A stretch of DNA of 64,000 nt from Vicinamibacteria bacterium. Its GTDB lineage: Bacteria; Acidobacteriota; Vicinamibacteria; Marinacidobacterales; Marinacidobacteraceae. Position numbers and translations under genes: made by a program. This document shows, in pieces, positions 18,025 through 50,029 of this stretch. The notes below the pieces were generated by a model, which was not told the DNA's origin, searched no databases, and worked only from the letters and a program-made list of their open reading frames with translations. Each line of letters starts with the position of its first letter. Position 1 is the first letter of the stretch. Location of the stretch: assembly GCA_964291235.2 (NCBI GenBank), contig OZ219815.1, positions 192,001 to 256,000 of the forward strand, written 5' to 3'.

Positions 18025-19647
18025 TTATCCCAAGGTCGGGGTGAGGGTCGGCGCCCGGCGCTGCTGGGTCGCCTGCTCGTAGGCGTAGGCGATCCGGATC
18101 AGCACCGGCTCACTCCAGGCGCGCCCAAAGAAGGAAACGCCCGCCGGCAACCCTGAGACGAACCCCATGGGCACGCTGATGTCCGGGTAGCCCGCGATGG
18201 CGGCCGGCCCGGCGCTGCTGCCGCCGTCGAGCCGGTCACCCTTGATGTGGTCGGTGACCCAAGGCAGGTCGCGGGTGGGCGCGACGATCGCGTCGAGTTG
18301 GTGCTCGTCCATGAGGGCGTCGATGCCGTCCTCCCGGTTGGCGCGCTGGATGGTCTGCTTCGCGTTCAGGTAGGCCTCGTCGGTCAGCGGGCCGCGGGCC
18401 TCGGACGCGATCATGCGCTGCTGCCCGAAATGGGGCATCTCCAGATCGGCGTTTTGCTCGTTGAACTCGATGATGTCGGCAAGAGTCTTCACCCGGACGT
18501 CGGGCCCCAGGGTTGCCAGATAGGCGTTCAGGTCGGCCTTGAACTCGTACTCGAGGAGGAGCAGGGGAAGTTCGTCGTTCCAGGCAGCCTCGGGCAAGTT
18601 CGCGGGATCCACGACCACCGCTCCCGCGTCGGCCATCGCCTGGATCGCATCCTCGAAGAGCGCCGTGACCCGCGGATCGAAGCCGGTGAAACTGCGCGCC
18701 ACGCCGATGCGCGCTCCCTGGAGGCCTGCCGGATCGCAGAACTGCGCGTAGTCGGTGTGGAAGTTGCCTTCGCTGCGAGAGGTGGCCTCGTCGCGCGGGT
18801 CCACGCCCACGGCTCCCCCCAGCAGGACGGCCGCATCGCGCACGGTGCGCGTCATGGGCCCCGCGGTGTCCTGGGAGTGGGAGATGGGGATGATCCCGGA
18901 GCGGCTCCAGAGGCCCACCGTGGGTTTGATGCCCACGATGCCGTTACTGGACGAGGGACACATGATGGAGCCGCCCGTTTCGGTACCCACCGTCAGAGCG
19001 CACAGGTTGGCGGAGGCCGCCGCCCCCGAGCCGGAACTCGACCCGCACGGGTTGCGGTCGAGGGCGTAGGGGTTCTTGCACTGGCCGCCCCGGGCACTCC
19101 AGCCGCTGGTCGCCCGCTCCCCGCGGAAGTAGGCCCATTCGCTCATGTTGAGCTTGCCCAGGATGATGGCGCCGGCCGCGCGCAGGCGCTCGGCCACGAA
19201 GGAATCCTGCGGCGGGATGGAGCCCTCGAGGGCGAGCGACCCCGCCGTGGTGGTCATCCGGTCGTGGGTGTCGAGGTTGTCCTTGAGCGCGACCGGGATT
19301 CCGTGGAGCGGCCCACGGACGCCTCCGGCGCTGCGCTCCGCGTCGAGTTCGTCAGCGATCTCGAGCGCGTCCGGGTTGATCTCGATCATCGAGCGCAGCT
19401 CGGGACCCTGCCGGTCCAGAGCTTCGATGCGCCCGAGGTACGCCTCCGTGATGGAGCGGGCGGTGTGTTCGCCCGACTCCATCAGGCGCTGGAGGTCGGC
19501 GGCGGTGATCTCATCGAATTCGAACGGCGGGATCTCCTGCGTGGTGGAGGCCGATGGCGCGTCCGAGGCGGACGGGGCACAGGCGAGGTTCGCGGTCAGG
19601 CCGGCGCCGCCGGCTGCGGTTGTCTTCAGGAATGCTCTTCGGTCCAT
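18025..19647 (-). CDS. Amidase (amidase signature family) with Tat signal
   Basis: MDRRAFLK twin-arginine signal, GPLHGIPVALKDN, GSSSGSG and GTETGGSI. Confidence 0.92.
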   Translation of the reverse strand: MDRRAFLKTTAAGGAGLTANLACAPSASDAPSASTTQEIPPFEFDEITAADLQRLMESGEHTARSITEAYLGRIEALDRQGPELRSMIEINPDALEIADELDAERSAGGVRGPLHGIPVALKDNLDTHDRMTTTAGSLALEGSIPPQDSFVAERLRAAGAIILGKLNMSEWAYFRGERATSGWSARGGQCKNPYALDRNPCGSSSGSGAAASANLCALTVGTETGGSIMCPSSSNGIVGIKPTVGLWSRSGIIPISHSQDTAGPMTRTVRDAAVLLGGAVGVDPRDEATSRSEGNFHTDYAQFCDPAGLQGARIGVARSFTGFDPRVTALFEDAIQAMADAGAVVVDPANLPEAAWNDELPLLLLEYEFKADLNAYLATLGPDVRVKTLADIIEFNEQNADLEMPHFGQQRMIASEARGPLTDEAYLNAKQTIQRANREDGIDALMDEHQLDAIVAPTRDLPWVTDHIKGDRLDGGSSAGPAAIAGYPDISVPMGFVSGLPAGVSFFGRAWSEPVLIRIAYAYEQATQQRRAPTLTPTLG

Positions 19648-19676
19648 GGGTGTTCTCCCGTTCGGCGCAGCATATA

Positions 19677-19975
19677 GGTCCGTCCCGTCGCCCCGCTTCG
19701 CGGGGCTGTGCCGGCCTGGAGGCCGGCGTTCCCGTGCCTGGGCGACACCAAGGCTACGGGGATCCACGCCGAGAGGGGAACCATCCTGTCGCTTGGGGGG
19801 TCCGTCCCGCCGCCCGCCTGCGGCGGGCTGTGCCGGCCTGGAGGCCGGCGTTCCCGTGCCTGGGCGACACCAAGGCTACGGGGATCCACGCCGAGAGGGG
19901 AACCGTCTTGGCGCTGGGGGGTCCGTCCCGCCGCCCCGCTTCGCGGGGCTGTGCCGGCCTGGAGGCCGGCGTTCC
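19677..19975. repeat. Tandem array of about 2.5 copies of a ~122-bp REP-containing unit
   Basis: Units begin GGTCCGTCCCG at 19677, 19799 and 19920; each has two hairpins. Confidence 0.9.
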
Positions 19976-20008: not shown

Positions 20009-20881
20009 CTACGCCGTCCAGCCGGCTTCGGGGCGGTCGAACCAGATGTGGACCTGCCCGGTGCCGACGGCGTTCTCGTACTCCGAGAACAGCCGGCCGG
20101 GAGCGGAGCACCCCGCGCCGCCGGCGGCGGCGACCGCCATCAGGTAGTGCCCGAAGCGGCCCTCGGGTGCGAACTGCGCGTAGTCGTCCATCGCCTCGAT
20201 CACGCGGCGGTGGTCGCCGGCCTGCATCCATTCGATCCGTGCTTCGTCGGCGGCGCGGGCCTCCGGCGTGCGGACGTGGACGGGATCGGACGCTTCGTGC
20301 TGCGCGATCACCGGCAGCGGCCAGAACCGGTGGCTCATCCCTCCGGAAGCGAGAAGCACCGTGCGCCGGCCCGTCTCCTCGACCGCTTCGCCGATCGCCC
20401 GGCCCATGGCCAGGAAGTCAGGAGTGGTTCCCGTCTGGCAACTGCTCACCGAGACCACCCGCTCGCCGCGCCAGAGGTAGTGGAGCAGGTTGATCGTCGG
20501 GTAGTGGACGGGTAGATACGGGTCGTCGGAAGCGTGCGCCGGCTGCCCGGCCCGCTTGGCGGCCGCCTCGGCGGCGCGGGCCAGCTCGGGATCCCCCGGA
20601 TAGTCGTAGGGAACTCCGTGCATGCCCCGCGGCAGCTCGTCCGAGGTGTAGCGGCCGTGGCGGCGTTCCTGTGCCGTGAGCAGATGCTCCACGGTGCTTG
20701 CCCAGTGAGTGTCGAAGATGACGAAGGTCTCGGCCTCAAGCTCGTCGAGCACCTCGTTCCGAAGCCGGCGAAGTCCGGGAACGAGGCTGATCTCCTTGCC
20801 CTCGTTCAGTTCCCGCCGCACGTCCTCGGGCAGCATGATGGTCGGGACGTGCGAGAGGAGGCCGAAGCCGACAACCGCCAC
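20009..20881 (-). CDS. LigB/HpaD-like extradiol ring-cleavage dioxygenase
   Basis: SHVPTIML, FDTHW, YDYPGDPELA, HYPTINL, LASGGMSHRFWP and EGRFGHY; GTG start at 20881. Confidence 0.85.
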   Translation of the reverse strand: MAVVGFGLLSHVPTIMLPEDVRRELNEGKEISLVPGLRRLRNEVLDELEAETFVIFDTHWASTVEHLLTAQERRHGRYTSDELPRGMHGVPYDYPGDPELARAAEAAAKRAGQPAHASDDPYLPVHYPTINLLHYLWRGERVVSVSSCQTGTTPDFLAMGRAIGEAVEETGRRTVLLASGGMSHRFWPLPVIAQHEASDPVHVRTPEARAADEARIEWMQAGDHRRVIEAMDDYAQFAPEGRFGHYLMAVAAAGGAGCSAPGRLFSEYENAVGTGQVHIWFDRPEAGWTA

Positions 20882-20885
20882 GTCG

Positions 20886-21680
20886 CTACTCCCCGCCGGC
20901 CGACAGGCTCTCACCGCCCCGGAAGGTGAATCCGACCCGCCGCCAGCAGCCGCCAAGCATTTCGCGGGGCGCGAGCGACAAAAGCTCCTCGGTGGGCGAA
21001 GGAAAGACGCGAAGGGTGGCGCTTCCGGTGTGGGCGATCCCGAGTTCCACGTCGGCAGAGGCTACCTTGACGATCTCGTGAAGAGCGTCCGAGCCGTCGG
21101 CAGCGACCCCGGGCATCAGGCGGTGATGAAGCATGGGATGGGCGTTCACGAAACCGGTGGACTCCGCCTCGCCGGTGATCGTGAACTCCGCTTCCATGAG
21201 GCGGCGGGAACCGGCGGCCACGGTCGCCCCGAAGCGGCCGCCGGGAGCCAGCGGCGGCCCCGCCCGGCCGATGAGCGCGGGACGCGTCATCCAGATCTCG
21301 CCGAGCTTTTTGGGGTAGCCCTGGAAATGCCCGCGCACCAGCGAAGAGTCACTGTCCACCCAGATGAAGACGCAGCGCGACCAGTCGCGGCCCCGGTAGC
21401 GGCAGCGGACCACCAGCAGACACTCCTTGTACTGGGCGCGCACCGGATCGACCAGTTCGTCGCCCGCCTCGCTGCAGCACTGCCACTCAGCCCAGATGGC
21501 CGCCACCGCATCCGGGCGGTCGGCGACCGGTTCGAGCGGCGAAGGCAGCAGTGCCGCCACCGCGCCGGGCTCGGCGAGGTACTCGATGGTGAGCATCTCG
21601 CCCGAGTAGTACCAGGGGGGCGGCCGGAGCAGCGAGGCACCGCCCGAGGGAGTGCGGGGGAAGAGGAAACCGGTCGTCAT
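20886..21680 (-). CDS. Acetoacetate decarboxylase (Adc)-like family protein
   Basis: PPPWYY, QYKE, FIWVD and RGHFQGYPKKLG (Schiff-base Lys motif). Confidence 0.85.
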   Translation of the reverse strand: MTTGFLFPRTPSGGASLLRPPPWYYSGEMLTIEYLAEPGAVAALLPSPLEPVADRPDAVAAIWAEWQCCSEAGDELVDPVRAQYKECLLVVRCRYRGRDWSRCVFIWVDSDSSLVRGHFQGYPKKLGEIWMTRPALIGRAGPPLAPGGRFGATVAAGSRRLMEAEFTITGEAESTGFVNAHPMLHHRLMPGVAADGSDALHEIVKVASADVELGIAHTGSATLRVFPSPTEELLSLAPREMLGGCWRRVGFTFRGGESLSAGGE

Positions 21681-21688
21681 CCTGTGGT

Positions 21689-22858
21689 TCAGGCGTCCCA
21701 GGCCACCCTAACCCTCTTTGGACCCCGAAACTCGAAACCTCGGAGCGTCACCTCCTCCGTCGGGTGCAGTCGGAGGCCGGGAAGGTTCCGGAAGAGCCGC
21801 TCGGCGCCGATCCGGATCTCCTGGCGGCCGAGCCACTCGCCGATACAGCGGTGGACCCCGAGCGCGAAGGCGGCGTTCCCGCCCTCGGTGCGGGTCGGGT
21901 CGAGCCGTTCCGGATCACGGAAACGGGCGGGATCGAGATTCGCGGCGCGCAGGATGCCGGAGACGAGCACTCCTTCGGGAAGCCGGACCCCGCCGATTTC
22001 GGTTTCTCGGGTGGTGGTGCGGGTGATGGTGCCGACGGGGGTGTAGCGGCGGAGCACCTCGTCCACGAGCCGCCGCATCGCCGCGGGGCTCCCGAGTGCC
22101 TGCTCGCGGAGATGCTCGTCGGACAACATCGTCCACACCACGAGGCCGATCCCGTCGCGCGGCTCGTTGATGCCGCCCGAGATCATCAACCGGACGTTGT
22201 TCACGATCTCCGCGGCGGTGAGGTCCTGCTCGGCGCCCAGGATGTGGAGGAGTCCGCAGGCCTCGGGACGGTCGCGCAGTTCGTCGAGGCGGGCCAGCAC
22301 CGCCGCTTCGACAGCGTCGGCGGCGCGCTCGCCGACGGCGAACGCCTCGGGCTCCTGCTCGAAGTTCGCGACCCCGACGCAGAGGCCCTCGCACCAGTCC
22401 CAGACCTCCCGGAAGTCATAGGCATCGAGGCCGAGCACCGTAGCGAGCGACCCGGCGCTCACCAGCGCTGCATACCCGGCGATGATGTCGGCTTCGCCGT
22501 CGTCCCGCATGGATTCGATGAGCCGGTCGCACATCGCCGGCAGTTCGTGCTCGGCGAAGGCGCCGCTCCGTCCGGCCCGCAGGAACGGCGGCTTGCAGGC
22601 CTTTTGCAGCCGGGTGCAGGCCGGCGGATCGAGGGTCAGCATGTTCTCGCCGAGCGTCCGGGCCAGAAAGCTCGGCTCGGTGGCGGCGCTGAAGATCTCC
22701 GGCTGATCCTCCATCGCCTGGACATCGTCCCAGCGGGTCACGAACCACATCTGGAGCGCCGGAATCCAGGCGACGGGTTCCTCCTCGCGGAGCCGGGCCA
22801 GGATCGGGTCCGGATCGCGGTCGAGATCCTCGGCAGTGACGGTGGCGGCGAAACTCAC
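21689..22858 (-). CDS. Cytochrome P450 with non-canonical I-helix (GGINEP)
   Basis: Heme motif FALGVHRCIG, ExxR motif EVLRRY and ANLDPARF. Confidence 0.92.
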   Translation of the reverse strand: MSFAATVTAEDLDRDPDPILARLREEEPVAWIPALQMWFVTRWDDVQAMEDQPEIFSAATEPSFLARTLGENMLTLDPPACTRLQKACKPPFLRAGRSGAFAEHELPAMCDRLIESMRDDGEADIIAGYAALVSAGSLATVLGLDAYDFREVWDWCEGLCVGVANFEQEPEAFAVGERAADAVEAAVLARLDELRDRPEACGLLHILGAEQDLTAAEIVNNVRLMISGGINEPRDGIGLVVWTMLSDEHLREQALGSPAAMRRLVDEVLRRYTPVGTITRTTTRETEIGGVRLPEGVLVSGILRAANLDPARFRDPERLDPTRTEGGNAAFALGVHRCIGEWLGRQEIRIGAERLFRNLPGLRLHPTEEVTLRGFEFRGPKRVRVAWDA

Positions 22859-22877
22859 AGACGGGTTGCCGTAAACG

Positions 22878-24158
22878 TCAGAGATAGGGGATGTACTCCC
22901 GCTTCTCCCAGTCGGTGGTGTGGGCGCGGAAGCGCTCCCATTCCCGGCGCTTCACCGTGACGTGCATCTGCACGAACTCCTCGCCGAACGCCGCCACCAG
23001 GTCCTTGTCGGCCTCCAGGTCGTCAAGCGCGCGGGCCAGGTCGTCGGCCACGGTGACGTCGGTGTCCGATCCCTCGAGGCAGTCCCCGGTCTCCTCGGGA
23101 GGAGGCTCGAGTTCCTGTGCGATGCCGAGGTGAGCGGCGAGCAGGGTGGCCGCCACCGCGAGGTGCGGACCGCAGGCGCCGTCCGCGAGCCGGTGTTCGA
23201 CCCGCGCCCCTTCCCCGCGTTCGAGTGGAATCCGCACCGCGCAACCGCGGTGGTCGTGGCCCCAGTTGGCCCAGTAGCCGCTCATCTGACCGGGACGGAG
23301 CCGGCGGTAGGAGTTCACGGTCGGCGCCACCGCGCCGGCGAGCCCCCGGTGGTGACGGAGCAGGCCGGCGACCGCGGACCAGGCAAGCTTCGAAAGCCCG
23401 CCGTCGCCGTCCGGATCGTCGAAGACGTTCTTTACGCCGTCTTCGAGGCTCAAGTTGACGTGAAGCCCGGAACCGCCGCGGTCGGTGAACGGCTTCCCGA
23501 TGAAGGTGAGGTGGTACCCGCGCTCGGCGGCCACCTCCCTGGCCAGGAGCTTGAAGAGAAAGGCCTCGTCGGCGGCGGCGAGGGCGTCGTTCTTGCCGAG
23601 CGTCAGTTCGAACTGCCCGTCGTCGTACTCGCTGTGGAAGGACTCGATCTCGATCCCGGCACGCTCGGCGGCGTCGAGCACATCCTCCATGATTCCGTCA
23701 GGGTCCGTCAGGGGCCCGGAGCCGTAAACATGCGAACCGGGAGTGCGGATCGGGTTGAAAGCACCTTCCAGGTCAGGCTGGAGCAGAAACGCCTCGAGTT
23801 CGATGCCCACCACCGGACGGCGTCCGTCGGCCTCGTGCTCGGCGATGGCCCGCTTCAGGATGCGGCGGGGCGAGCGTTCGAGCGGCTTCCCGCCGGCCTC
23901 CAGGTCGGCGACCACCACGCCGACTCCGTCGGTCCAGCCGTCGCGGACCGCCTCCGGATCGAAGACGGCGCGCATGTCGGGGAGACCCTCGAGGAGTCCG
24001 GAACCCGGATAGGCGTCCATCTCCCGGTCGAAACCAAGCGCGAAGGTGGCGAGGCAGTGACCGGTGGCGGCGGCGTTCGGCAGGAGGACCTTGCCGCGCG
24101 CGAGGCCGAGGTGGTCGGGCCAGAGCGGGCGGATGCGGCGGTAGTCGGGGTCGGTCAC
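22878..24158 (-). CDS. Glutamine synthetase-like gamma-glutamyl-amine ligase (PuuA/GlnA3-like)
   Basis: DHLGLARGK, GIELEAF, EYDDGQFE, GSGLHVNLS, NSYRRL and RVEHRLAD; GTG start at 24158. Confidence 0.88.
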   Translation of the reverse strand: MTDPDYRRIRPLWPDHLGLARGKVLLPNAAATGHCLATFALGFDREMDAYPGSGLLEGLPDMRAVFDPEAVRDGWTDGVGVVVADLEAGGKPLERSPRRILKRAIAEHEADGRRPVVGIELEAFLLQPDLEGAFNPIRTPGSHVYGSGPLTDPDGIMEDVLDAAERAGIEIESFHSEYDDGQFELTLGKNDALAAADEAFLFKLLAREVAAERGYHLTFIGKPFTDRGGSGLHVNLSLEDGVKNVFDDPDGDGGLSKLAWSAVAGLLRHHRGLAGAVAPTVNSYRRLRPGQMSGYWANWGHDHRGCAVRIPLERGEGARVEHRLADGACGPHLAVAATLLAAHLGIAQELEPPPEETGDCLEGSDTDVTVADDLARALDDLEADKDLVAAFGEEFVQMHVTVKRREWERFRAHTTDWEKREYIPYL

Positions 24159-24171
24159 GGCGGGGGTTGTA

Positions 24172-24744
24172 TCACTTCGGTCGCGGGCGCAGGACCAGCG
24201 CCGCGATGGTCCCGCTGGCGAGGAAGAAGTAGATCGGATAGATCGCGATGGCGAACTCCCAGCGATCCACCGCCAGCAGATTGCAGGTGTTCCCGGCGAT
24301 GAAGAGCGCCCAGGCGAGGCGGTCTTCGGTGTGCGGGGCGACGTAGGCCTTCCGGATGGTCGGGAGCGCCCCCGCGAAATCGACGCCGAGCGTGGTGACC
24401 AGCGCGACCACCGGAGAGTCGAAGAGCCACCAGAGCAGAAGACCCGCGCCGGCGCCCATGAGGCAACGGCGGTCGAGTGGCGTCGAGCCACCCTCGCCGT
24501 AGCGGATGCTCAGCAGCGCCGTCACCAGGGAGGCGACGAAGTAGCTGACCGCGACCCAGATGGTGGTGTCGGCGCCGGAGAAGTAGTAGCTGGCCAGCAG
24601 GACCGCGCCGGTCGTCGTCCAGATCCACCAGGTGGCCCGGTTCGGACGGGTCTCGCCGCGGAGAATCGCCGCGATGTAGGGGACGAACGCCACCAGCGAC
24701 AGGACGCCGGCCACCCAGCCGAACAGGACTGGCAGCGGCGGCAT
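24172..24744 (-). CDS. Small multi-pass membrane protein (PQ-loop/SemiSWEET-like duplication, uncertain)
   Basis: Two similar halves (FVPYIAAILRGETRP and ALPTIRKAYVAPHTE); six to seven TM helices. Confidence 0.65.
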   Translation of the reverse strand: MPPLPVLFGWVAGVLSLVAFVPYIAAILRGETRPNRATWWIWTTTGAVLLASYYFSGADTTIWVAVSYFVASLVTALLSIRYGEGGSTPLDRRCLMGAGAGLLLWWLFDSPVVALVTTLGVDFAGALPTIRKAYVAPHTEDRLAWALFIAGNTCNLLAVDRWEFAIAIYPIYFFLASGTIAALVLRPRPK

Positions 24745-29994: not shown

Positions 29995-31692
29995 CTAGTA
30001 CCCCTTGACAACGCCGAGGCGCCTGGGGTCGGTCGCCCCGTGGAGCTTGCCGTCCTCCCCCATCCAGACGATCTGCATGGAGCCGGTGTGCCAGTTGTAG
30101 GCACCGAGATCGGTCACCTTGATCCCGCTCTTCTTCATGCCCTCGCGGACGGCGTCCGAGATGCGGGATTCGATCTGGACTCCCCGTTCATCGCCCCGGA
30201 AGGCCCAAAAGCGCGGCGCGTCGGCCGCGTCCTTCGGGTGCATGCCGTAGTCGATGATGTTCACCAGCACCTCGGTCACCGGCTGCGGCGGCGAGCCCGG
30301 CGTTCCCATCGCGAGCCAGGGTTTCCCTTCCTTCGCGATGATGATCCCGGTGATCGGCAGCACCAGGCGCCGTCCCGGACCGGCAGTGGAGGCCCGCGCT
30401 GTGCTTCCCGTCGCCCGCACGCCGTCGATGAAGATTCCCGGGGCGCCGCCGTGCCCGGTGTGGAGCATGGACACCCAGTTCCCGTGGGAGTCCACGATCA
30501 CGTTGTGGTTGCTCCCGAGATCGGCGGTGTCCGCGCCGCCGGCGCCCGTCGGAAACAGGGAGGCGGTCATGTCGGGAGCCTCGCTACCCGACAGATCCAC
30601 GCCGGGTAGCAGCATCGTGTTCTCGACGAACGCGGCGCCGAGCTTTCCGTATTCGTCCGACAACCAGAGCTCGATGGGCATCTGGAAGTTGAGCGGATCC
30701 TTGATGACCCAACGGGTTTCGTCGGCGACCCGGCCAAAGGCGCGGATCATGATCTCGAGGGCCTCGGAGGACTCGCTGTAGTGCCCCAGGCCCTTCAGGT
30801 CGAAGTTCTCGAGGATCTTGAGGTTGCTACCCACGATGACCCCGCCGGTGTCCGGCGGCGGTGAGCCGTAGAAGTCGAGGTCCCGGTAGGTGAACTTCGT
30901 CGGGTCGTCCCAGTGGGGCCGGTATTCGGCCATGTCCTGCATGCTGACCGCGAAGCCCTTCTTGTTCGCGGCCTCCACGAACTTTTGGGCCCAGGCCCCG
31001 GTGTACAGGTAGTCGGCGCCCTCGGAGGCGACTTTCTTCAAGTGCTCGGCCATTCGCGGCCGCTTCCAGCGCTCGCCTACCGGCACCAGGTGGCCGTCCG
31101 GCATGTACGCCGCGCGAGCCTCGGGGTTGCTGACGAGGTCCCCCTGCTCCATGAGCGCGTAGTTGATGCCGTACATGAACGAGGTGACGATGGCGCCCTC
31201 CTCGGCCGAGGCGATGGCCGGCTGCAGGTAGCTCGACCACTCCATGGTCCCGCTGCCGTAGCGCTCCGCGATCGCCTCGAGGCCGCGTACCACCCCGCCG
31301 ATGGCGACCTTGGAGACGTCGCCGTGGTCGTGCCGGTCGGCGCGGGGCCGCTCGGACACAGCGTTCAGTGACCAGTACTTGTCGGTGGCGGCGTCGTAGC
31401 CGATCACCGACATCGAGCCGAAGTGCGAGACCTGGTGGAAGTCCTGAACGTGCTGCACGAAGACGGCGGTCACCATGGCGTCCACCGCATTCCCGCCCTC
31501 TTTCAGCACCTGGAGCGCGGCCTCGCTCACCACCGGAAGCTGGGTAGCCACCATGACCGAGTCGCCAGTCGCTACCGGCTTCGGCCCCTGGTTGAGCTGC
31601 GGGTCGGGCTCGTTCTGCGCGGTCCCGGTGGCGGCGAGGGCCAATGTCGCCAGCGCCGCGAGCAGGCAAGTCAGTCGAAAGCTTCTTGTCAT
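29995..31692 (-). CDS. Gamma-glutamyltransferase-fold Ntn hydrolase, secreted (paralog 1)
   Basis: GGNAVDAM, PAIASAEEG, SPPPDTGG, GTPGS, APRF and GATDPRR. The processing site reads GSNHNVIVD. Confidence 0.85.
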   Translation of the reverse strand: MTRSFRLTCLLAALATLALAATGTAQNEPDPQLNQGPKPVATGDSVMVATQLPVVSEAALQVLKEGGNAVDAMVTAVFVQHVQDFHQVSHFGSMSVIGYDAATDKYWSLNAVSERPRADRHDHGDVSKVAIGGVVRGLEAIAERYGSGTMEWSSYLQPAIASAEEGAIVTSFMYGINYALMEQGDLVSNPEARAAYMPDGHLVPVGERWKRPRMAEHLKKVASEGADYLYTGAWAQKFVEAANKKGFAVSMQDMAEYRPHWDDPTKFTYRDLDFYGSPPPDTGGVIVGSNLKILENFDLKGLGHYSESSEALEIMIRAFGRVADETRWVIKDPLNFQMPIELWLSDEYGKLGAAFVENTMLLPGVDLSGSEAPDMTASLFPTGAGGADTADLGSNHNVIVDSHGNWVSMLHTGHGGAPGIFIDGVRATGSTARASTAGPGRRLVLPITGIIIAKEGKPWLAMGTPGSPPQPVTEVLVNIIDYGMHPKDAADAPRFWAFRGDERGVQIESRISDAVREGMKKSGIKVTDLGAYNWHTGSMQIVWMGEDGKLHGATDPRRLGVVKGY

Positions 31693-31713: not shown

Positions 31714-33408
31714 TCAGTGGCCCGCGACGTGTCCCAGCCGCCGTGGATCACTGACCCCGTAGAGTTTTCCGTCGTCACCGCGCCAGATGATCTGCATCGA
31801 GCCGGTGTGCCAGTTGTAGTCGCCGAGCTCTTCCATCGCGATGCCGCTCCTCGCCATCCCCCGGCGGACCTCCTCCGAAATGCGGGACTCGATGCGCAGC
31901 ACCCGCCGGTCGGTCTGTCCGTAGAGGAAGGCCCAAAAGCGCGGCGCTTCCGCCGCCGCCTTCGGAGGCATTCCGAAGTCGAGGATGTTCACGAGCACCT
32001 CGGTCACCGGCTGCGGCGGAAACCCGGGGGTCCCGAGCGAGAGCCAGGGCCTGCCGTCCTTCATCACGAAGACCCCGGTGACCTCGGCCAGGATGCGCCG
32101 TCCGGGACCCATCGTCTCGGCCTTCACGCCGCTGCCGGTGGCGCGGACGCCGTCGATGAAGATCCCCGGAGCGCCGCCGTGCCCGGTGTGGAGCGAGCTG
32201 ATCCAGTTCCCCTCGGCGTCCACGATCACGTTGTGGTTGCTGCCGAGGGTCATCGAGGATGCGACGTTCGCCTCCGTGGTTTCGAGTTCCACCGCCGCCG
32301 TCAGGTCCACCCCCGGCTGCGGCATCGTCTGCCGCACGAATTCGGCGCTCAGCCGCGCGTATTCCTTGGAGTTCCAGAGCTCGTAGGGGTTTCGGTAAGC
32401 GGCCGGGTCCTGGATGGACCACTTCATGTCGGACTCCACCTTGCCGAAGCTCCGGACCATGATCTCGAGGGTCTCCGGGGACTCGGCGTAGTGGCCGGTG
32501 GCCCTGAGATCGAACTGCTCCAGCACATTCAGGTTCTGCCCGACCAGCAGCCCGCCCTTGTTGGGAGGCGGCTCGACCAGGATTTCGTATCCCCGGTAGG
32601 AGAAGCGCGCCGGCTCCAACCAGCGCGTCTCGTACTCGGCGAGGTCTTCCAGGGTGACGCAGAAACCGCGCCTGGTCGCCTGCTCCACGAACTTCTTCGC
32701 CCAGTCGCCCTTGTAGAGGTGATCGGCGCCGTTCTCGGCGACCGCGCGCAGGGTTCCGGCGAGTGCCGGCATCTTCCAGGTTCCTCCCACCGGAACCAGG
32801 TATCCCTCGGGCATGTAGAAGGCGCGCGCTTCTTCGTTCTCCCGAATCAGGCCACCGCCCTCCCAGAGGCTGTAGTTGTTCGCGTACTGGAAGTTGGTGA
32901 CCAGGACCCCCTCTTCGGCGGCGGTAATCGCCGGTTCCAGGTAGCTGGCCCAGGGACGGGTCCCGAACCGCTCCGCGAGGGATTCGAGACCACGGACCGT
33001 GCCTCCGATGGCGAGCCGGCCGACCCGCTTGCCCTCCCCGCAGCGGTCGGCTCGCGGCCGCTCCGAAAACGCGTTGAAGGCGTAGGTGGTCCCGGTGGCG
33101 GCCTCGAAATAGAGGCCGGACATTGCGCCGAAGTGCGAAACCTGGTGGAAATCCTCGACGTGCTGCAGGAAGACGGCGGTGACGAAGGCGTCCACCGCGT
33201 TCCCGCCGTTCTCAAGCACGCGGAGCGCCGCGCCCGTGACGTTCGGGAGCTGGGTCGCCACCATGCCCCCGTCGGCCGTGGCGACCGCCTTCGGCCCCTG
33301 GTTCAGCAGCGGATCCCGGGAGCCCGTGGGCTCCTGGGACCGGGCCGCAGGCGTGGCGGCCACGACCGCAAACACCAGGAACAGGACAAGCCGCGAAGCT
33401 TTCTTCAT
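31714..33408 (-). CDS. Gamma-glutamyltransferase-fold Ntn hydrolase, secreted (paralog 2)
   Basis: GGNAVDAF, PPPNKGG, GSNHNVIVD, GTPGF and GVSDPRR; collinear with paralog 1. Confidence 0.85.
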   Translation of the reverse strand: MKKASRLVLFLVFAVVAATPAARSQEPTGSRDPLLNQGPKAVATADGGMVATQLPNVTGAALRVLENGGNAVDAFVTAVFLQHVEDFHQVSHFGAMSGLYFEAATGTTYAFNAFSERPRADRCGEGKRVGRLAIGGTVRGLESLAERFGTRPWASYLEPAITAAEEGVLVTNFQYANNYSLWEGGGLIRENEEARAFYMPEGYLVPVGGTWKMPALAGTLRAVAENGADHLYKGDWAKKFVEQATRRGFCVTLEDLAEYETRWLEPARFSYRGYEILVEPPPNKGGLLVGQNLNVLEQFDLRATGHYAESPETLEIMVRSFGKVESDMKWSIQDPAAYRNPYELWNSKEYARLSAEFVRQTMPQPGVDLTAAVELETTEANVASSMTLGSNHNVIVDAEGNWISSLHTGHGGAPGIFIDGVRATGSGVKAETMGPGRRILAEVTGVFVMKDGRPWLSLGTPGFPPQPVTEVLVNILDFGMPPKAAAEAPRFWAFLYGQTDRRVLRIESRISEEVRRGMARSGIAMEELGDYNWHTGSMQIIWRGDDGKLYGVSDPRRLGHVAGH

Positions 33409-33445
33409 GATGGCCTCCCGCGACATTTCCCCCGCCGGGTCGGTG

Positions 33446-35534: not shown

Positions 35535-36803
35535 CTACCGGGAAACCAGCCGCACCGGGAGGTGCTTGATTCCGTGGATGAAGTTGGAACGGAGACGGTC
35601 GGGCGGGCCGGTGCGTTCGATGGCGCGCACCCGGCGAAAGAGTTCCTCGAAGGTGACCCGGACCTCGAGGCGGGCCAGCCAGGCGCCGAGGCAGACATGG
35701 CGTCCGGCGCCGAAGGCGAGGTGGGGATTCGGATCCCGGCGGAGGTCGAAGCGTTCGGGCTCCGGGAAGGCCTCCGGGTCGCGGTTCGCGGCGATGTACC
35801 AGAGGACGGCCTTGTCGCCGCGCCGCAAGCGGGCGCCGTCGAGGTCGAGATCCCGGGTCAGGGTCCTTCGGAAGTGCATGGTCACCGAGGTCCAGCGGAG
35901 GATCTCCTCGGTCGCCGACTCGTAGAGGTCGCGGTCGCCCGGGGCCGCGCTCAGCTCGCCATAGGCGGCGGGATGTTCCAGCAGGGCGAGGAGGCCGTGC
36001 GAGATCGTGTGCCGGGTGGTCTCGTTCCCGGCCACGATGAGCAGCAGGAAGAAGTTCTGAAACTCCAGCTCGGTCAACGGGCGGCCGCCGGCGTCCTCGG
36101 CCAGCATTCCGGAGAGGACATCCTCCGTCGGCCGGCGCAACCGCTCCTTCCGGATGCGGCTTGCGTAGTCGAAGACGGAACGCGCCGCCGGGCTCCGGAA
36201 AGGCAGCAGGCGGAACGCTTCGGTGTCCTCCTGATCGATCACCGCCATCGAAAACTCGGGATCGGCGTTCGAGATCAGCGCGTCGCCCCACTCCACGAGC
36301 TCGCCAGCGTCCGTCTCGGGCACGCCGAGGATGCGACAGAGCATCCGGATCGGCAGCTCGCGGGCGACTTCTTCGACGAAATCCAGCTCGCCGAGTTCGA
36401 GAGCGCGGTCGAGCACCAGCGCGGCGAGTTCGCGCACCGACGCTTCGTAGGCCGCGATCGATTTCCGCGAAAAGCCGGCTCCCACCAGCCGGCGGAGACG
36501 GGCGTGCTCGGCGCCGTCGTACTCCATCATCGTGCGGCGGGCTTCCAGTTCGTCCTGGTCGAGCTCTTCGAGGCGGATGCCGCGGGCGCAGGAAAAGTCC
36601 CGGGGGGTGGAACTCGCGCGGAACACGTGGGCGTGGCGGGTGAGCGCCCAGAAGCCGGCGCCGTCCTCTTCCTCGATCCAGCACGGGGAACCCCGTTCCC
36701 GGAGCCGCCGGAAGAGGTCCCAGGGGACGCCCTTTGTATAGGTGTCGTGGGAGACGATGGCCTCGAAGCCGGCTGGGGACCCGTTCCGCGCGTTCGTCGT
36801 CAC
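35535..36803 (-). CDS. Cytochrome P450 (canonical; CYP125-like appearance)
   Basis: VAGNETTR, EEILRW and HLAFGAGRHVCLG. The start is uncertain (GTG at 36803 chosen). Confidence 0.9.
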   Translation of the reverse strand: MTTNARNGSPAGFEAIVSHDTYTKGVPWDLFRRLRERGSPCWIEEEDGAGFWALTRHAHVFRASSTPRDFSCARGIRLEELDQDELEARRTMMEYDGAEHARLRRLVGAGFSRKSIAAYEASVRELAALVLDRALELGELDFVEEVARELPIRMLCRILGVPETDAGELVEWGDALISNADPEFSMAVIDQEDTEAFRLLPFRSPAARSVFDYASRIRKERLRRPTEDVLSGMLAEDAGGRPLTELEFQNFFLLLIVAGNETTRHTISHGLLALLEHPAAYGELSAAPGDRDLYESATEEILRWTSVTMHFRRTLTRDLDLDGARLRRGDKAVLWYIAANRDPEAFPEPERFDLRRDPNPHLAFGAGRHVCLGAWLARLEVRVTFEELFRRVRAIERTGPPDRLRSNFIHGIKHLPVRLVSR

Positions 36804-36906
36804 GAGCCGGATGGTACGCCGGGGAGAGCGGCCAACAGTGACGCACTTCCCATCGCGAAAACGGTGCGGGGCGCTTTCACCACCTGCTATAGGCTCTCGG
36901 GTTCCG

Positions 36907-37638
36907 ATGAACCCGAGCAAAATTCTCTGTGTTCATCTCAACTACTCGAGCCGGGTCGAGGAGTTCGGGGCGCGGCTTCCGAAGGCGCCCACCTACTTCC
37001 TGAAGCCTCCCTCCGCCCTGATCCGCAGCGGCGAGCCGGTCATCCGTCCGCGGGGTTGCCGGTATCTGAACTTCGAGGGAGAAATCGTCGCGGTGATCGG
37101 ATCCAACTGCCGGGGAATCGAGCCGGAAGACGCCGGCCGTTTCGTCGCCGGGTACACGATCGGCAACGATTTCGGCCTTCACGACTTCCGCGACACCGAT
37201 GCCGGGTCCATGCTCCGGGTGAAGGGGTCGGACACCATGTGTCCGGTGCTGGACGAGGTCGTTTCCGGGTGGGACTTCCGGGGGAAGACCATCCGCACCC
37301 TGGTGAACGGCGAGGTGCGGCAGTCCGGCAACACCGACGAGATGGCGTGGAACCCCCACTACCTGATCGCGGATCTCGCCCGGACCCACACGCTGTTTCC
37401 GGGGGACCTGGTCTTCACGGGCACTCCGGCCGGCTCGCGGCCGGTGGAGCCGGGCGACGAGGTCGCCGTCGAGGTGGAGGGACTCGGCCGTCTCGTGAAC
37501 CCGGTGGTCGCCGCCGAGTGGGGGATTCCAGCGGGCTACGGGGCGCAGCCGACCGAGTCGGAGGAGGTGCGCTCGACGGCGCTGGGCGGCGATTGGGAAT
37601 TCAGAGGCATCCGGCCTCCGAGAGCGGCGGCACGATGA
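36907..37638 (+). CDS. Fumarylacetoacetate hydrolase family protein (HpaG/HpcE-like)
   Basis: FLKPPSAL, NFEGEI, GYTIGNDF, KGSDT and GDLVFTGTP. Confidence 0.9.
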   Translation: MNPSKILCVHLNYSSRVEEFGARLPKAPTYFLKPPSALIRSGEPVIRPRGCRYLNFEGEIVAVIGSNCRGIEPEDAGRFVAGYTIGNDFGLHDFRDTDAGSMLRVKGSDTMCPVLDEVVSGWDFRGKTIRTLVNGEVRQSGNTDEMAWNPHYLIADLARTHTLFPGDLVFTGTPAGSRPVEPGDEVAVEVEGLGRLVNPVVAAEWGIPAGYGAQPTESEEVRSTALGGDWEFRGIRPPRAAAR

Positions 37639-38405
37639 GCAGGCGGACGCTTCCCGAACGGCCCCGGATCGGACTCAGCTCCTGGAAACGGCCGGTGCAC
37701 ACCATCGTCGGGGCCCCGGAACAGCTCTTCACGCTCGCCGAGGAATATGTGGATTGCGTCCGGGCCGCCGGTGGCGTCCCGCTCATCCTGCCCCCGGCGC
37801 CCCTCAGCGCGGCGGCCGACGCGGTCGCCTCGGTGGACGCGCTGGTGCTCACCGGCGGCGGAGACTTCTCGCCGTCGTCCTACGCGGAGCCCGACGAGGG
37901 CGTGAGTTCGGAGATCGATCTCCAGGAGGACGCCTGGGACGTCGCGCTGACGCTCGCCGCCCGGGACGCGGGCATTCCCTTCTTCGGCATCTGTCGCGGG
38001 ATGCAGGCGCTGAACATCGCACTCGGCGGGACACTCCATCAGGACATCGGCGACCGGGAGCACCACCCGCCCATCCCGGAGGTCCCGGCGGATGCGGTCG
38101 CCTTCCGGCACCCGGTCACGATCAAGGCGGAGAGCCGGCTCGGCCGGATTCTCGGGGTCACCGAGCGAAGCGTGAACAGCATCCACCACCAGGCGGTGAA
38201 CCGGCTCGGACAAGGGCTCGTTCCCGTCGCCCACGCCCCGGACGGGATCATCGAGGGCGTCGAGTACAACGGGGCCGCGGCGGGCGCCGGGTGGCAATGT
38301 CTGGGGGTGCAGTGGCACCCCGAGCGCATGGGGCACACCCTGGACCAGCTCATCTTCGATGAGGTGGTCCGAATGGCCGCGGAGCGGGGACGCGACGGGG
38401 AGTAG
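37635..38405 (+). CDS. Gamma-glutamyl-gamma-aminobutyrate hydrolase family (peptidase C26, PuuD-like)
   Basis: LVLTGGGD, FGICRGMQ, VNSIHHQ and GVQWHPE; ATG at 37635 overlaps the FAH gene stop. Confidence 0.92.
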   Translation: MSRRTLPERPRIGLSSWKRPVHTIVGAPEQLFTLAEEYVDCVRAAGGVPLILPPAPLSAAADAVASVDALVLTGGGDFSPSSYAEPDEGVSSEIDLQEDAWDVALTLAARDAGIPFFGICRGMQALNIALGGTLHQDIGDREHHPPIPEVPADAVAFRHPVTIKAESRLGRILGVTERSVNSIHHQAVNRLGQGLVPVAHAPDGIIEGVEYNGAAAGAGWQCLGVQWHPERMGHTLDQLIFDEVVRMAAERGRDGE

Positions 38406-39890: not shown

Positions 39891-40340
39891 TTACTCCGTC
39901 CGGACGGTCTCCTGGCTCTGTTTGATCGCCGCCCGCAGGGTGTGCCAGGCGAGCGTCGCGCACTTGACGCGCGTCGGGTAGTCGCGCACTCCGGCGAACA
40001 CGGTCAGCTTGCCGAGGCTTTCGTCGTCGGGCTCGGTCTCGCCGGAGACCATGCCGCGAAAGTCCTCGACGAGCTGCAGCGCTTCGTCCTCGGGCCGTCC
40101 CCGCATCGCTTCCGTCAGTAGCGAGGCCGAGGCGGTCGAGATCGCGCAGCCGTCCCCCACGAACGAGGCCTGCTGGACAGCGCCGTCCTCCACCCGCAGG
40201 AACAGCCGCAGCCGGTCGCCGCAGAGCGGGTTGAAGCCGTCGGACTGCCGGTTGGCGGCGTCCATCGCGCCGAAGTTCCGGGGCCGCCGGCTGTGATCGA
40301 GGATCACCTCCCGGTAGAGATCGCGAAGCGCGTCGTTCAC
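39891..40340 (-). CDS. sufU: SUF system NifU-like protein SufU
   Basis: LYREVILDH, NPLCGD, GCAISTAS and RVKCATLAW; GTG start at 40340. Confidence 0.92.
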   Translation of the reverse strand: MNDALRDLYREVILDHSRRPRNFGAMDAANRQSDGFNPLCGDRLRLFLRVEDGAVQQASFVGDGCAISTASASLLTEAMRGRPEDEALQLVEDFRGMVSGETEPDDESLGKLTVFAGVRDYPTRVKCATLAWHTLRAAIKQSQETVRTE

Positions 40341-41572
40341 GGGCGGAAAACCTCCAGCGCGGTGTGGAGCCCGGCGGCCAGCCGGTCCACTTCGGCCTCG
40401 GTGTTGTAAAGGCCGAACGAGGCGCGCGCGGTCGCGGGCACGCCGAAGCGCGCCATCAGCGGCTGGGTGCAGTGGTGGCCGGTGCGCACCGCGACGCCCT
40501 CCTGGTCCAGCACCGTGCCGAGATCGTGCGGATGCACCCCGTCCACCACGAAGGAAACCACCGCCGCCTTTTCCGGGGCGGTGCCCACCACCCGGAGGCC
40601 GGGGATCTCCGCGAGCCGGGCCTCCGCGTACTCGCGAACCCGGGACTCGTGCGCCGCTACCTCGGGAATCCCGAGCCTGTCGAGGTAGTCCGCCGCCGCC
40701 GCGAGCCCCACCGGGCCCGCGATGTTGGGCGTTCCCGCCTCGAACTTGGCCGGCGGTTCGGCGTAGGTGGTGCGCTCGAAGCTCACCGTGCGGATCATCT
40801 CGCCGCCGCCCTGGTACGGGGGGATTGCTTCCAGCAGGCGCTTTTTGCCCCACAGCAGCCCGATCCCCGAAGGGCCGTACATCTTGTGGCCGGAGAGACA
40901 GTAGAAATCGCACCCGAGGGCCATCACGTCGAGGGTGAGGTGGGGCGCCGCCTGGGCGCCGTCGAGCACCAGGTAGGCGCCGCGTTCCTTCGCGAGCCGG
41001 GAGATCTCTTCGACCGGGTTCACGGTACCGAGGGCGTTCGAGACGTGGACCACTGAGACGATGCGGGTGCGGTCGTTCAGCAGGGCGGCGAACGCGTCCA
41101 TGTCCACTTCGCCCTGGTCGGTGACCGGAGCGGCCACAACCTTCGCGCCGGTCAGCTCGGCGACCATCTGCCAGGGCACGATGTTGGAGTGGTGCTCCAT
41201 CTCGGTGAGGAGCACCTCGTCGCCCTCGCCGAGGGCGTAACGCCCGAGCGAAGAGGCCACCAGGTTCAGCCCCTCGGTGGTGCCCCGGACGAAGATCACC
41301 TCGTCGGCGGACGGCGCGCCGATGAACTTCGCCATCCGGCGCCGCGAGCGCTCGTAGTACTCGGTCGCCCGTTCCGAGAGGACGTGGACACCGCGGTGGA
41401 TGTTCGCGTAGCCGTGTTCGTAAACGTGGTCCACCGCATCCAGCACCGCACGCGGCTTCTGGGAGCTGGCGGCGTTATCGAGGTACGCGATGGGCTGGCC
41501 GTGCACCTCCTCCGCCAGGATCGGGAAGTCGGCGCGAACCTTTTCGAGGTTGTAGGCGGGAGCGGCAATCAT
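40337..41572 (-). CDS. sufS: Cysteine desulfurase SufS
   Basis: YLDNAASSQKP, EHHSN, SGHKMYGP and RTGHHCTQP. Confidence 0.95.
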   Translation of the reverse strand: MIAAPAYNLEKVRADFPILAEEVHGQPIAYLDNAASSQKPRAVLDAVDHVYEHGYANIHRGVHVLSERATEYYERSRRRMAKFIGAPSADEVIFVRGTTEGLNLVASSLGRYALGEGDEVLLTEMEHHSNIVPWQMVAELTGAKVVAAPVTDQGEVDMDAFAALLNDRTRIVSVVHVSNALGTVNPVEEISRLAKERGAYLVLDGAQAAPHLTLDVMALGCDFYCLSGHKMYGPSGIGLLWGKKRLLEAIPPYQGGGEMIRTVSFERTTYAEPPAKFEAGTPNIAGPVGLAAAADYLDRLGIPEVAAHESRVREYAEARLAEIPGLRVVGTAPEKAAVVSFVVDGVHPHDLGTVLDQEGVAVRTGHHCTQPLMARFGVPATARASFGLYNTEAEVDRLAAGLHTALEVFRP

Positions 41573-42906: not shown

Positions 42907-42910
42907 GCCC

Positions 42911-43672
42911 TCAGGCGGCGGAAGCCGCCGCCGGCTTCGTGTAGCCCTCGGCCTCGAGCCGGAGCGCCAGCTCCCGCCCGCCGGACTCGACGATCCGACC
43001 CTCCTGGAGCACGTGCACCCGGTCCGGCACGATGTGGTTCAGGAGACGCTGGTAGTGGGTGATCACCAGGAAGGACCGCTCCGGCGAACGCATGCGGTTC
43101 ACGCCCTCGGCGACGATCCGGAGGGCGTCGATGTCGAGGCCGGAGTCGGTCTCGTCGAGGACGCCGAGCGTCGGCTCGAGCACGGTCATCTGGAGGATCT
43201 CGTTGCGCTTTTTCTCGCCCCCCGAGAAGCCCTCGTTGACCGGCCGCTTGATGAGATCCACATCGAAATCGAGCAGCTTGACCCGGTCCTTCATCAGACC
43301 CAGGAAATCCACCGCGTCGAGTTCCGGCTGGCCGCGGTGCTTTCTGATCTCGTTCACGGCCGCCTTCAGGAAGTAGGTGTTGTTCACCCCGGGGATCTCG
43401 ACCGGGTACTGGAAGGCGAGGAAGATGCCCTTCCGGGCTCGATCCTCGGGCTCCATCTCGGAGATGTCCTCGCCGCGGTAGCGAAGGACTCCACCAGTGA
43501 TCTGGTACCCCTCGCGGCCGGCGATCACGTGGGCGAGGGTGCTCTTCCCGGAACCGTTCGGACCCATCACCGCGTGGGTCTCGCCCACCGGGATCTCCAG
43601 ATTGAGGCCGCGCAGGATTTGGCGGCCCTCGACCTCGACGCGGAGGTCGCAGATTTCGAGCAGGTTCGTCAT
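42911..43672 (-). CDS. sufC: Fe-S cluster assembly ATPase SufC
   Basis: [22 protein letters not shown] and LDETDSGLD. Confidence 0.97.
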
Positions 43673-45135: not shown

Positions 45136-45139
45136 GAGG

Positions 45140-45595: not shown

Positions 45596-45705
45596 GAGGA
45601 AGCCTGGGTGCCGGATCCGCGAGCACCTAACCCGAACGTCATCTCGAGGGCCGCACCGTGCGGCGGCCGGGGAAGATCAATCCGTAAGGTCAGAGTGCCA
45701 ATCTA

Positions 45706-49964: not shown

Positions 49965-50029
49965 CCCCCGCGCGACCGCCGCTTCGGAGCAGGCGGCTGG
50001 CGGGCGCGAACGGACTAGAGTTCATACAA

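Follow-up and report, generated by a model that had tools for sequence, protein, structure and literature searches.

A split gene cluster in a Vicinamibacteria genome with a possible role in glutamylation-dependent catabolism of an aromatic amine

The cluster and its two halves

This paper concerns a run of five genes in the genome of a Vicinamibacteria bacterium (Acidobacteriota; GenBank assembly GCA_964291235.2). It lies in a stretch of 64,000 nucleotides, contig OZ219815.1, positions 192,001 to 256,000 of the forward strand, which we call the window. The run occupies positions 20009..24744 of the window and encodes a membrane protein, a ligase resembling glutamine synthetase (GS), a cytochrome P450 (P450a), an enzyme of the ADC superfamily and a LigB-type extradiol dioxygenase. 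An original prediction, made from the DNA letters and translations, had taken this run for a candidate undescribed gamma-glutamylation pathway acting on aromatic amines. We find that the run is half of a widespread and apparently undescribed bacterial gene cluster. The complementary genes, another cytochrome P450 (P450b), a FAA-hydrolase-family enzyme (FAH) and a hydrolase of the Peptidase_C26 family (C26), lie at 35.5-38.4 kb, 11 kb from the run (Table 1). We suggest, with a probability of about 0.55, that the cluster serves to degrade an aromatic amine by a catabolic route that depends on glutamylation and passes through meta-cleavage of the kind used for homoprotocatechuate (Hpa).

Table 1. 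Genes of the two loci, in window coordinates
Feature	Position	Strand	Details
Membrane protein	24172..24744	-	ATG start, 190 aa; first gene of the run
GS-like ligase, predicted gamma-glutamyl-organic-amine synthetase	22878..24158	-	GTG start, 426 aa; Gln-synt_C 1.1e-87
Cytochrome P450 'a' (P450a)	21689..22858	-	389 aa; PF00067 (p450) 1.4e-14
ADC-superfamily, MppR/Sbi00515-like enzyme	20886..21680	-	264 aa; PF06314 (ADC) 2.5e-53
LigB-type extradiol dioxygenase, HpaD-like	20009..20881	-	GTG start after GGGGAG, 290 aa; PF02900 (LigB) 9.2e-23
Cytochrome P450 'b' (P450b), CYP125/124-like	35535..36920	-	PF00067 3e-24; locus 2
FAA-hydrolase-family enzyme (FAH), HpaG-like	36742..37638	+	PF01557 7.6e-53; divergent from P450b
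Peptidase_C26 (C26)/class-I GATase-fold amidohydrolase, PuuD-like	~37620..38405	+	Peptidase_C26 1.3e-54; start codon not fixed

All five genes of the run are read from the minus strand, and the gaps between them, from the membrane protein to LigB, are 13, 19, 8 and 4 nt, in agreement with the 4-19 nt first claimed. The gene identities proposed at the same time were right as well: Pfam backs the GS-like, P450, ADC and LigB assignments, and a hydropathy scan, with at least four hydrophobic segments, backs the membrane protein. GC at the third codon position is 0.82-0.86 in all five reading frames, in a window with a GC content of 64-73%. A scan of 19.5-25.2 kb for promoters and terminators gave nothing exceeding shuffled controls.

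We read the two loci as a split cluster, in which the second supplies the missing parts of the first. In a related Vicinamibacteria genome no more than 9 kb holds the genes for C26, FAH, P450b, GS, ADC and LigB (locus L027). The idea of the run as a pathway stands in part: the run itself is real, but it is only half of the system, as the second P450, FAH and the PuuD-like hydrolase are encoded elsewhere. The two top NCBIfam matches of FAH are a generic family (NF009399, 212 bits, cut-off 444) and the HpaG C-terminal family (TIGR02303, 166.5 bits, cut-off 276), and we predict that the protein works either as a decarboxylase/isomerase or as a hydratase. The C26 protein has a single NCBIfam match, to gamma-glutamyl-GABA hydrolase (PuuD; 83.9 bits, cut-off 266; GABA is gamma-aminobutyric acid), and is predicted to hydrolyse a gamma-glutamyl amide.

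Co-occurrence in related genomes

Since the ADC gene adjoins LigB in all 14 of the stretches taken from relatives, with GS in 11, P450a in 8 and the membrane protein in 7, the five-gene arrangement is not a product of chance. In the window and in the genomes of family f3, the GS, P450, ADC and LigB genes form one co-directional run with gaps of 4-19 nt. Orthologues of ADC and LigB were found in the same 31 of 61 related genomes, those of GS in 33, FAH in 32 and P450b in 29. Outside family f1, ADC, LigB, GS and FAH are restricted to four genomes (G031, G044, G047 and G054); FAH lies beside the cluster in three of these and on a separate short contig in G044.

In some lineages the cluster appears to be decaying. 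The ADC-like gene of G031 is frameshifted over three frames and LigB of the same genome has an internal TGA stop (locus L023, G031:C11:21000-39000), so that the two appear to decay together there. LigB is split in two at G027:C1:2473457-2474322, and a further genome, G041, retains only a split remnant of GS, adjoining a P450b gene.

Distant loci and cultured carriers

A search for co-occurrence, which the original prediction had set beforehand as its possible refutation, found the genes together in other genomes, including those of other phyla. At E <= 1e-10 we counted 2152 homologues of the ADC-like protein in a set of 6968 candidates, and a pattern scan of a collection with one genome per species placed its orthologues in at least 596 stretches. 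Among the matches listed, the closest named records with the same genes are metagenome-assembled genomes of Vicinamibacteria (Acidobacteriota). We counted neighbouring genes, by tblastn with defined queries, around the best 80 of the at least 596 ADC matches, and separately in the 49 of these 80 distant loci that have at least 6 kb on both sides (Table 2). The full set of 80 is drawn from Acidobacteriota, Alpha- and Gammaproteobacteria, and Actinomycetota, Acidimicrobiia among them.

Table 2. Genes found near the ADC-like gene in distant loci
Gene	Loci	Loci with at least 6 kb on both sides
P450b	57/80	43/49
FAH	56/80	39/49
LigB	47/80	30/49
GS	43/80	32/49
MarR	39/80	28/49
HpaE-like aldehyde dehydrogenase	32/80	26/49
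GATase or C26	28/80	22/49
Pyridoxal phosphate (PLP) decarboxylase	10/80	9/49
P450a	6/80	4/49
Ferredoxin reductase	5/80	4/49
Amidase, gamma-glutamyltranspeptidase (GGT) or membrane protein of the window	0/80	0/49

As to gene order, FAH adjoins ADC in 39 of the 80 loci; the order ADC-P450b-LigB is found in 16 loci and is continued by GATase in 11; in 10 of 18 cases GATase comes directly after LigB and is read in the same direction; and 27 of the 43 loci with GS have it no more than 400 nt from an aromatic-module gene. Five genomes without LigB near ADC all have an orthologue elsewhere (53-60% identity), four of them 12-32 kb off on the same contig. Pfam analysis of five distant clusters found the same gene cast together with branched-chain-type ATP-binding cassette (ABC) transporters or amino-acid permeases. 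Across the cluster the closest curated families are HpaD, HpaE, HpaG, PuuC and PuuD, and MarR is weakly HpaR-like; these matches suggest that an Hpa-like module is combined with a Puu-like one.

Two of the carriers are cultured. Plasmid pABRDHK22 of Novosphingobium sp. EMRT-2 encodes a 2Fe-2S ferredoxin, two aldehyde dehydrogenases (the second HpaE-like), FAH, ADC, GS, a P450, LigB and MarR. The cluster on pSLUN1 of Streptomyces lunaelactis spans ~15 kb and includes an amino-acid permease together with GS, MarR and ADC; a PuuD-like hydrolase that adjoins an aldehyde dehydrogenase closest to PuuC (554 bits); and, ahead of LigB and FAH, a further aldehyde dehydrogenase that is nearest to HpaE (519 bits). 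It also has a PLP decarboxylase whose best curated matches are tyrosine decarboxylases. No P450 is present in the pSLUN1 cluster, as would be expected if the substrate there is already a catechol. A second type of cluster-linked decarboxylase, at locus L069, counts DOPA (3,4-dihydroxyphenylalanine) and tyrosine decarboxylases among its nearest relatives of solved structure; the best match is 4obu, which we take to be a tryptophan decarboxylase.

Some clusters vary in composition. In gammaproteobacterial ones (L060:9451-11428) MarR is followed by genes for an M24/creatinase-like peptidase and an arylmalonate-decarboxylase-like (Amdase) protein. A variant in unclassified Actinomycetota has a second FAA-family gene after ADC and no LigB within 8 kb (L044, L048, L049, L054, L058, L069, L075, L077, L079, L081, L094 and L101), and four of these loci have the layout permease, PLP decarboxylase, MarR, P450b, GS.

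The GS-like ligase

The genome has only two genes of the GS family, a true GlnA and the GS-like ligase. The best NCBIfam match of the latter is gamma-glutamylputrescine synthetase (NF045547; 235.8 bits, cut-off 650), followed closely by the type III GS model (235.1 bits, cut-off 469.6). Its closest solved relatives are archaeal GS and glutamate-methylamine ligase (GmaS), both at ~7e-57 and 196 bits; the match to 8wwu, which is NpaA1 (PMC11335346), is at 1e-36 and 130 bits.

We aligned the GS-like protein of the window and four cluster orthologues with the genome's own GlnA. Equivalents of the metal, ATP and glutamate residues E130, E132, E207, E212, E220, H269, R322, R340, R345, E359 and R361 are invariant. 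At the ammonium site, FDGSS of GlnA is changed to FDREM, FDRNM, HDREL, YDRSL or FDKQM in the five cluster proteins; GSS is thus replaced by R/K-x-M/L in all five and the equivalent of Ser53 is gone. The flap PGFEAP of GlnA becomes PGQMSG or similar, and the flap Glu is Met or Leu in 5/5. Because the ammonium-site Ser and the flap Glu are lost while the other ligands are kept, the alignment fits an active ligase whose third substrate would be something other than ammonium. At these two positions the pattern is the one to be expected of the organic-amine ligase that had been proposed. The cluster proteins also have an insertion of 6-7 residues after Asp. GoaS and GmaS enzymes are described as having an extra N-terminal motif in the same domain (PMC11335346); a link between this motif and the insertion is only suggestive.

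The ADC-like enzyme and the dioxygenase

The ADC-like protein scores 215.3 bits against the MppR family (TIGR04460, cut-off 380). Among solved structures its relatives are MppR itself (4jm3, 5e-52) and 4zbo/6eej (~4e-44). Its K124 is aligned with K156 of MppR and K122 of 4zbo, which we take to be the Schiff-base lysines of those proteins. No PLP partners of the MppP/MppQ type stand beside the gene, whose neighbours in the run are LigB, P450 and GS. We predict that the enzyme acts as a Schiff-base hydratase-aldolase on a 2-oxo acid formed after ring fission. In Sulfolobus solfataricus, ADC-like (MppR-like) genes beside a catechol 2,3-dioxygenase gene are described as phenol-induced, and an aldolase role was proposed for them (PMC7820114).

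The LigB protein scores 130 bits against HpaD_Fe (TIGR02298, cut-off 315.95). The closest solved protein is 8iq8, a 3,4-dihydroxyphenylacetate 2,3-dioxygenase (7e-19), and next come beta subunits of 2-aminophenol 1,6-dioxygenase (3e-12 to 5e-10). Residues H11, H59, H184 and E240 are invariant across seven orthologues; presumably they correspond to H12, H61, H195 and E242 of LigB, that is, to the metal ligands and the catalytic His.

The two P450s

P450a, whose heme motif FALGVHRCIG is visible in the translation, has as its best solved relative the unnamed 6g71 (1.4e-58, 202 bits), which we take to be an O-demethylating CYP1232. It also matches chains of GcoA, the aromatic O-demethylase P450 (CYP255A), at ~1e-33 and ~120 bits. 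Judged by these relatives, P450a, an accessory enzyme, may be an aromatic O-demethylase. Its orthologues (at least 40% identity) occur in only six of the 80 distant loci, where four of them adjoin GS. In other genomes the ADC-like gene is usually partnered by P450b, which matches 8vxi (CYP125MRCA) at 2e-110 and is 48.6% identical to the ADC-adjacent P450 of locus L062.

Two earlier suggestions are affected. A P450 route to the catechol had been proposed for the run; the run does contain a P450, but it is the accessory one (6/80), and the common partner is the CYP125-like P450b (57/80). Methoxylated substrates, which had also been considered, gain some plausibility from the presence of GcoA O-demethylases among the closest named solved relatives of P450a, although the substrate is something that we infer.

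An open reading frame at 49787-50737 (+) encodes a protein with a Fer4_19 mono-cluster ferredoxin domain and CDGSH iron-sulfur domains. It could be the redox partner of P450a and P450b, both of which are without adjacent partner genes.

A proposed pathway

From the gene identities, the conserved catalytic residues, the clustering and the shared phyletic pattern we infer a substrate and every chemical step of the following route, the simplest in which each part of the cluster has a task. The GS-like ligase would use ATP to join an arylalkylamine to the gamma-carboxyl of glutamate. The amine would most likely be tyramine or dopamine, with 3-methoxytyramine or vanillylamine as further possibilities; as the specific substrate, tyramine or dopamine is a tentative choice, with the odds somewhat against it. 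A P450 would then lead to the catechol, P450b by ring hydroxylation or the accessory P450a by O-demethylation, and the HpaD-like LigB dioxygenase would open the ring beside the diol with the amide still attached. Oxidation and decarboxylation would follow as for homoprotocatechuate, by an HpaE-like dehydrogenase where there is one and by the HpaG-like decarboxylase/isomerase. Next, the lysine of the ADC-like enzyme would form a Schiff base with the 2-oxo acid, and its hydratase-aldolase activity would give pyruvate and an N-gamma-glutamyl-aminoaldehyde, which for dopamine would be gamma-glutamyl-4-aminobutanal. A Puu-like aldehyde dehydrogenase and then the Peptidase_C26 hydrolase would finally yield GABA and glutamate.

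The glutamyl cap would keep the free amine from cyclising onto the carbonyls produced by ring fission. Such a cap would also account for the lack of an amine oxidase or transaminase in the cluster; neither of these, nor a Rieske oxygenase, HpaBC or HpaH/HpaI, was seen in the cluster scans. The full version of the idea is that the gamma-glutamyl group protects the nitrogen through ring opening, that a catecholamine is broken down without an amine oxidase, the products being pyruvate, CO2, GABA and glutamate, that the route merges with Puu at gamma-glutamyl-4-aminobutanal and that the ADC enzyme is the hydratase-aldolase of a meta-cleavage pathway. Taken together we regard these as doubtful.

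A number of observations weigh against the proposal. Every NCBIfam equivalog score lies under its cut-off, so that all functions are assigned by analogy. The closest solved relatives of P450b are terminal hydroxylases of steroids and branched lipids (CYP125/124), not ring hydroxylases. A ferredoxin or reductase gene is present in neither locus of the window, and the run and its flanks hold no reductase of the GcoB type. Likewise, no HpaE- or PuuC-like dehydrogenase is encoded near either locus and the best matches in the genome are only 33-36% identical, which leaves the step after ring opening and the final aldehyde oxidation with no candidate gene here. The GS-like protein keeps the equivalent of Asp50, whereas GoaS enzymes are described as having lost both this residue and the flap Glu (PMC11335346), and it is nearer to archaeal GS and GmaS than to NpaA1. 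Clustering is frequent, not universal: within the flanks, GS is absent from 37 of the 80 loci and LigB from 33. The PLP decarboxylases, in addition to being found in ten loci only, belong to more than one subfamily. Finally, the 61 related genomes are kin, and their matching phyletic profiles amount to few independent events.

Alternative explanations

Several other explanations can be offered. The cluster might be a catabolic island of two unrelated modules, an Hpa-like one for a phenylacetate-type acid and a Puu-like one for an aliphatic amine or polyamine. In that case P450, LigB, Aldedh (aldehyde dehydrogenase), FAH and the ADC-like enzyme would act on a hydroxy- or methoxy-phenylacetate, and the GS-like, Aldedh and C26 enzymes on the amine; the ring substrate would have no nitrogen at all. 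GS often lies several kb away from ADC or in the opposite orientation, apart from being missing in the 37 loci just mentioned, and gamma-glutamylputrescine synthetase and gamma-glutamyl-GABA hydrolase are, respectively, the best curated match of the GS-like protein and the only one of C26. On the other hand, a stand-alone Puu module requires a PuuB-like oxidase or an aminotransferase, and Pfam revealed neither in the five distant clusters nor in representatives of the 28 commonest neighbour families. Two unrelated modules also fit poorly with the single GS-P450-ADC-LigB run of the window and family f3, with the placing of GATase right after LigB (10/18) and with the matching phyletic profiles of ADC, LigB, GS and FAH. 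We consider such an island unlikely. An arylamine such as aniline, aminobenzoate or an aminophenol derivative could instead be glutamylated, hydroxylated by the P450 ortho to the nitrogen and de-glutamylated by the GATase, leaving a 2-aminophenol for cleavage by an AmnB-like LigB. This would agree with the second-best solved relatives of LigB, the 2-aminophenol 1,6-dioxygenase beta subunits, and the pairing of a GS-like protein with a class-I GATase mirrors AtdA1/AtdA2 and NpaA1/NpaA2 as presented in PMC11335346. The best matches in the cluster, however, are HpaD, HpaE and HpaG and not Amn enzymes; no gene like 2-aminomuconate deaminase turned up in the neighbourhood scans; the cluster is accompanied by PuuC- and PuuD-like genes, an amino-acid permease and decarboxylases of the aromatic amino-acid type; and the GS-like protein is farther from NpaA1 than from GmaS and archaeal GS. 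The chances of this route seem low to us.

The capped compound could also be an amino acid. Tyrosine or L-DOPA would be gamma-glutamylated on the alpha-amine, hydroxylated and ring-cleaved, giving pyruvate and gamma-glutamyl-glutamate semialdehyde and finally two glutamates. Seco-DOPA cyclises, and capping would block that reaction too. Amino-acid-type uptake is common nearby (a branched-chain-type ABC transporter with its binding protein, or an amino-acid permease), and only a small number of loci have a decarboxylase (10/80). Yet where decarboxylases are present they are of the aromatic amino-acid type, which indicates an amine, and the characterised GS-like amide synthetases treated in PMC11335346 act on amines without an alpha-carboxylate. 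For these reasons the amino-acid version seems quite improbable. Least probable of all, to the extent that we would be surprised by it, is a biosynthetic cluster in which an MppR-like cyclase turns a ring-opened catechol into a pigment or a small nitrogen heterocycle, in the manner of betalamic-acid chemistry or enduracididine biosynthesis. Plant betalain synthesis does pair a P450 with a LigB-type DOPA dioxygenase, and among curated families the ADC-like protein comes nearest to MppR, a biosynthetic enzyme. But the MppR score is under its cut-off and no MppP/MppQ-like partner is adjacent, and the neighbours are catabolic ones, namely MarR/HpaR-like regulators, uptake transporters and HpaE-, HpaG-, PuuC- and PuuD-like enzymes, with no genes for non-ribosomal peptide synthetases, polyketide synthases, tailoring or export.

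Relation to known systems

The glutamylation-dependent route with Hpa-like meta-cleavage, which we prefer, borrows from several known systems. With the Puu pathway of E. coli (PuuA, PuuB, PuuC, PuuD) it would share a GS-like amine ligase, a C26 hydrolase, in some clusters a PuuC-like Aldedh, and the predicted last intermediates, gamma-glutamyl-aminobutanal and gamma-glutamyl-GABA, which are Puu's own. It differs in that scans of the clusters revealed no oxidase of the PuuB type, and the aldehyde would come instead from aldol cleavage after ring fission; the scores are under the Puu equivalog cut-offs, and the partners are P450s and a ring-cleavage dioxygenase. The likeness to the homoprotocatechuate pathway Hpa/Hpc (HpaD, HpaE, HpaF, HpaG, HpaH, HpaI, HpaR) lies in a LigB nearest to HpaD, an Aldedh nearest to HpaE, HpaG among the two best matches of FAH and a MarR weakly like HpaR. 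In contrast to Hpa, neither an HpaH/HpaI pair nor HpaBC was seen in the cluster, where an ADC enzyme and P450s are found instead and a glutamylation module is added; all cluster scores are under the Hpa cut-offs.

Aldol and dehydration chemistry on 2-oxo acids is what MppR and Sbi00515 (4jm3, 4zbo) perform. The ADC-like protein belongs to the same fold family and has the Schiff-base lysine aligned; unlike MppR it has no enduracididine context here, and its gene is paired with LigB, FAH and P450.

The use of a P450 after glutamylation is not new in itself. Isopropylamine in Pseudomonas sp. KIE171 (the Ipu pathway) is reportedly ligated, its gamma-glutamyl amide hydroxylated by a P450 and the product passed to an amidohydrolase, so that a GS-like ligase, a P450 acting on a gamma-glutamyl amide and an amidohydrolase would be common to both. 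The comparison is one of logic; the Ipu substrate is aliphatic and there is no ring to cleave. In citing literature ipuC is named as gamma-glutamylisopropylamide synthetase. GS-like ligases are described as starting the catabolism of aniline, naphthylamine, isopropylamine and putrescine, and in AtdA1-A5, TdnQTA1A2B and NpaA1-A5 such a ligase comes first and is paired with a GATase-like hydrolase (PMC11335346). In those three systems a Rieske dioxygenase removes the glutamylated nitrogen while forming the catechol, whereas here P450s take that place and the nitrogen is predicted to be retained through fission; a scan of proteins from both window loci and the five distant clusters revealed no Rieske domain.

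What appears to be new here is the combination of glutamylation-dependent amine catabolism with Hpa-type meta-cleavage, both of which are already known kinds. Outside subscription-only literature we found no description of the cluster or of bacterial catabolism via gamma-glutamyl-tyramine or gamma-glutamyl-dopamine, and a literature search for gamma-glutamyltyramine returned only papers on methanofuran/methylofuran cofactors and on metabolomics.

Tyramine and dopamine, like the amines related to them, are common biogenic compounds, and to our knowledge the bacterial routes for amines of this type begin with an amine oxidase or a transaminase. If the proposal is correct, it would amount to a new way of handling the reactive ring-fission products of amino-aromatics, and Acidobacteriota, Actinomycetota and Proteobacteria of soil and sea would have a widespread route for biogenic aromatic amines that had gone unrecognised. 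Within the ADC superfamily, the MppR/Sbi00515 branch would gain a physiological role, and a function could be given to a cluster carried by hundreds of mostly uncultured species, including sponge-associated Acidimicrobiia. The cluster also provides candidate enzymes for the synthesis of gamma-glutamyl amides and for demethylation of lignin-type aromatics. The predictions are specific, and they can be tested in the two cultured carriers, Novosphingobium sp. EMRT-2 and S. lunaelactis.

The membrane protein and neighbouring genes

The 190-residue membrane protein had been listed with the other genes of the run. It is indeed the first gene of the run and is a multi-pass protein, which may have a role as a transporter; but it is lineage-specific and stands outside the conserved system, being 80-91% identical in 7 of the 14 relatives' stretches and absent from all 80 distant loci. 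It has no match in Pfam or NCBIfam, and an Atlas search returned unnamed clusters only.

Directly downstream of LigB, on the same strand, an amidase-signature enzyme is encoded at 18025-19767 (-). It scores above the NF006006 cut-off, has a weak match to a twin-arginine (TAT) signal and might release amines from amides in the periplasm. Two tandem GGT paralogues that share 57.5% identity are encoded between the loci, at 29995-31692 and 31714-33426 (-). We considered a pathway role for the amidase and the two GGTs and set it aside: they are syntenic in close relatives, yet occur in none of the 80 distant loci.

The spacer between LigB and the amidase gene contains, at 19672-19975, ~2.5 tandem copies of a GC-rich unit of 122 nt that are 92% identical. 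Each unit has short palindromes and a look reminiscent of repetitive extragenic palindromic (REP) elements. One close relative has just ~4 nt between its LigB and amidase matches. Beyond locus 2, at 39891-45676 (-), there is a complete-looking Suf region for iron-sulfur cluster assembly, with genes for an Rrf2 regulator, SufB, SufC and SufD, a class-V aminotransferase that resembles SufS, and a NifU-like protein.

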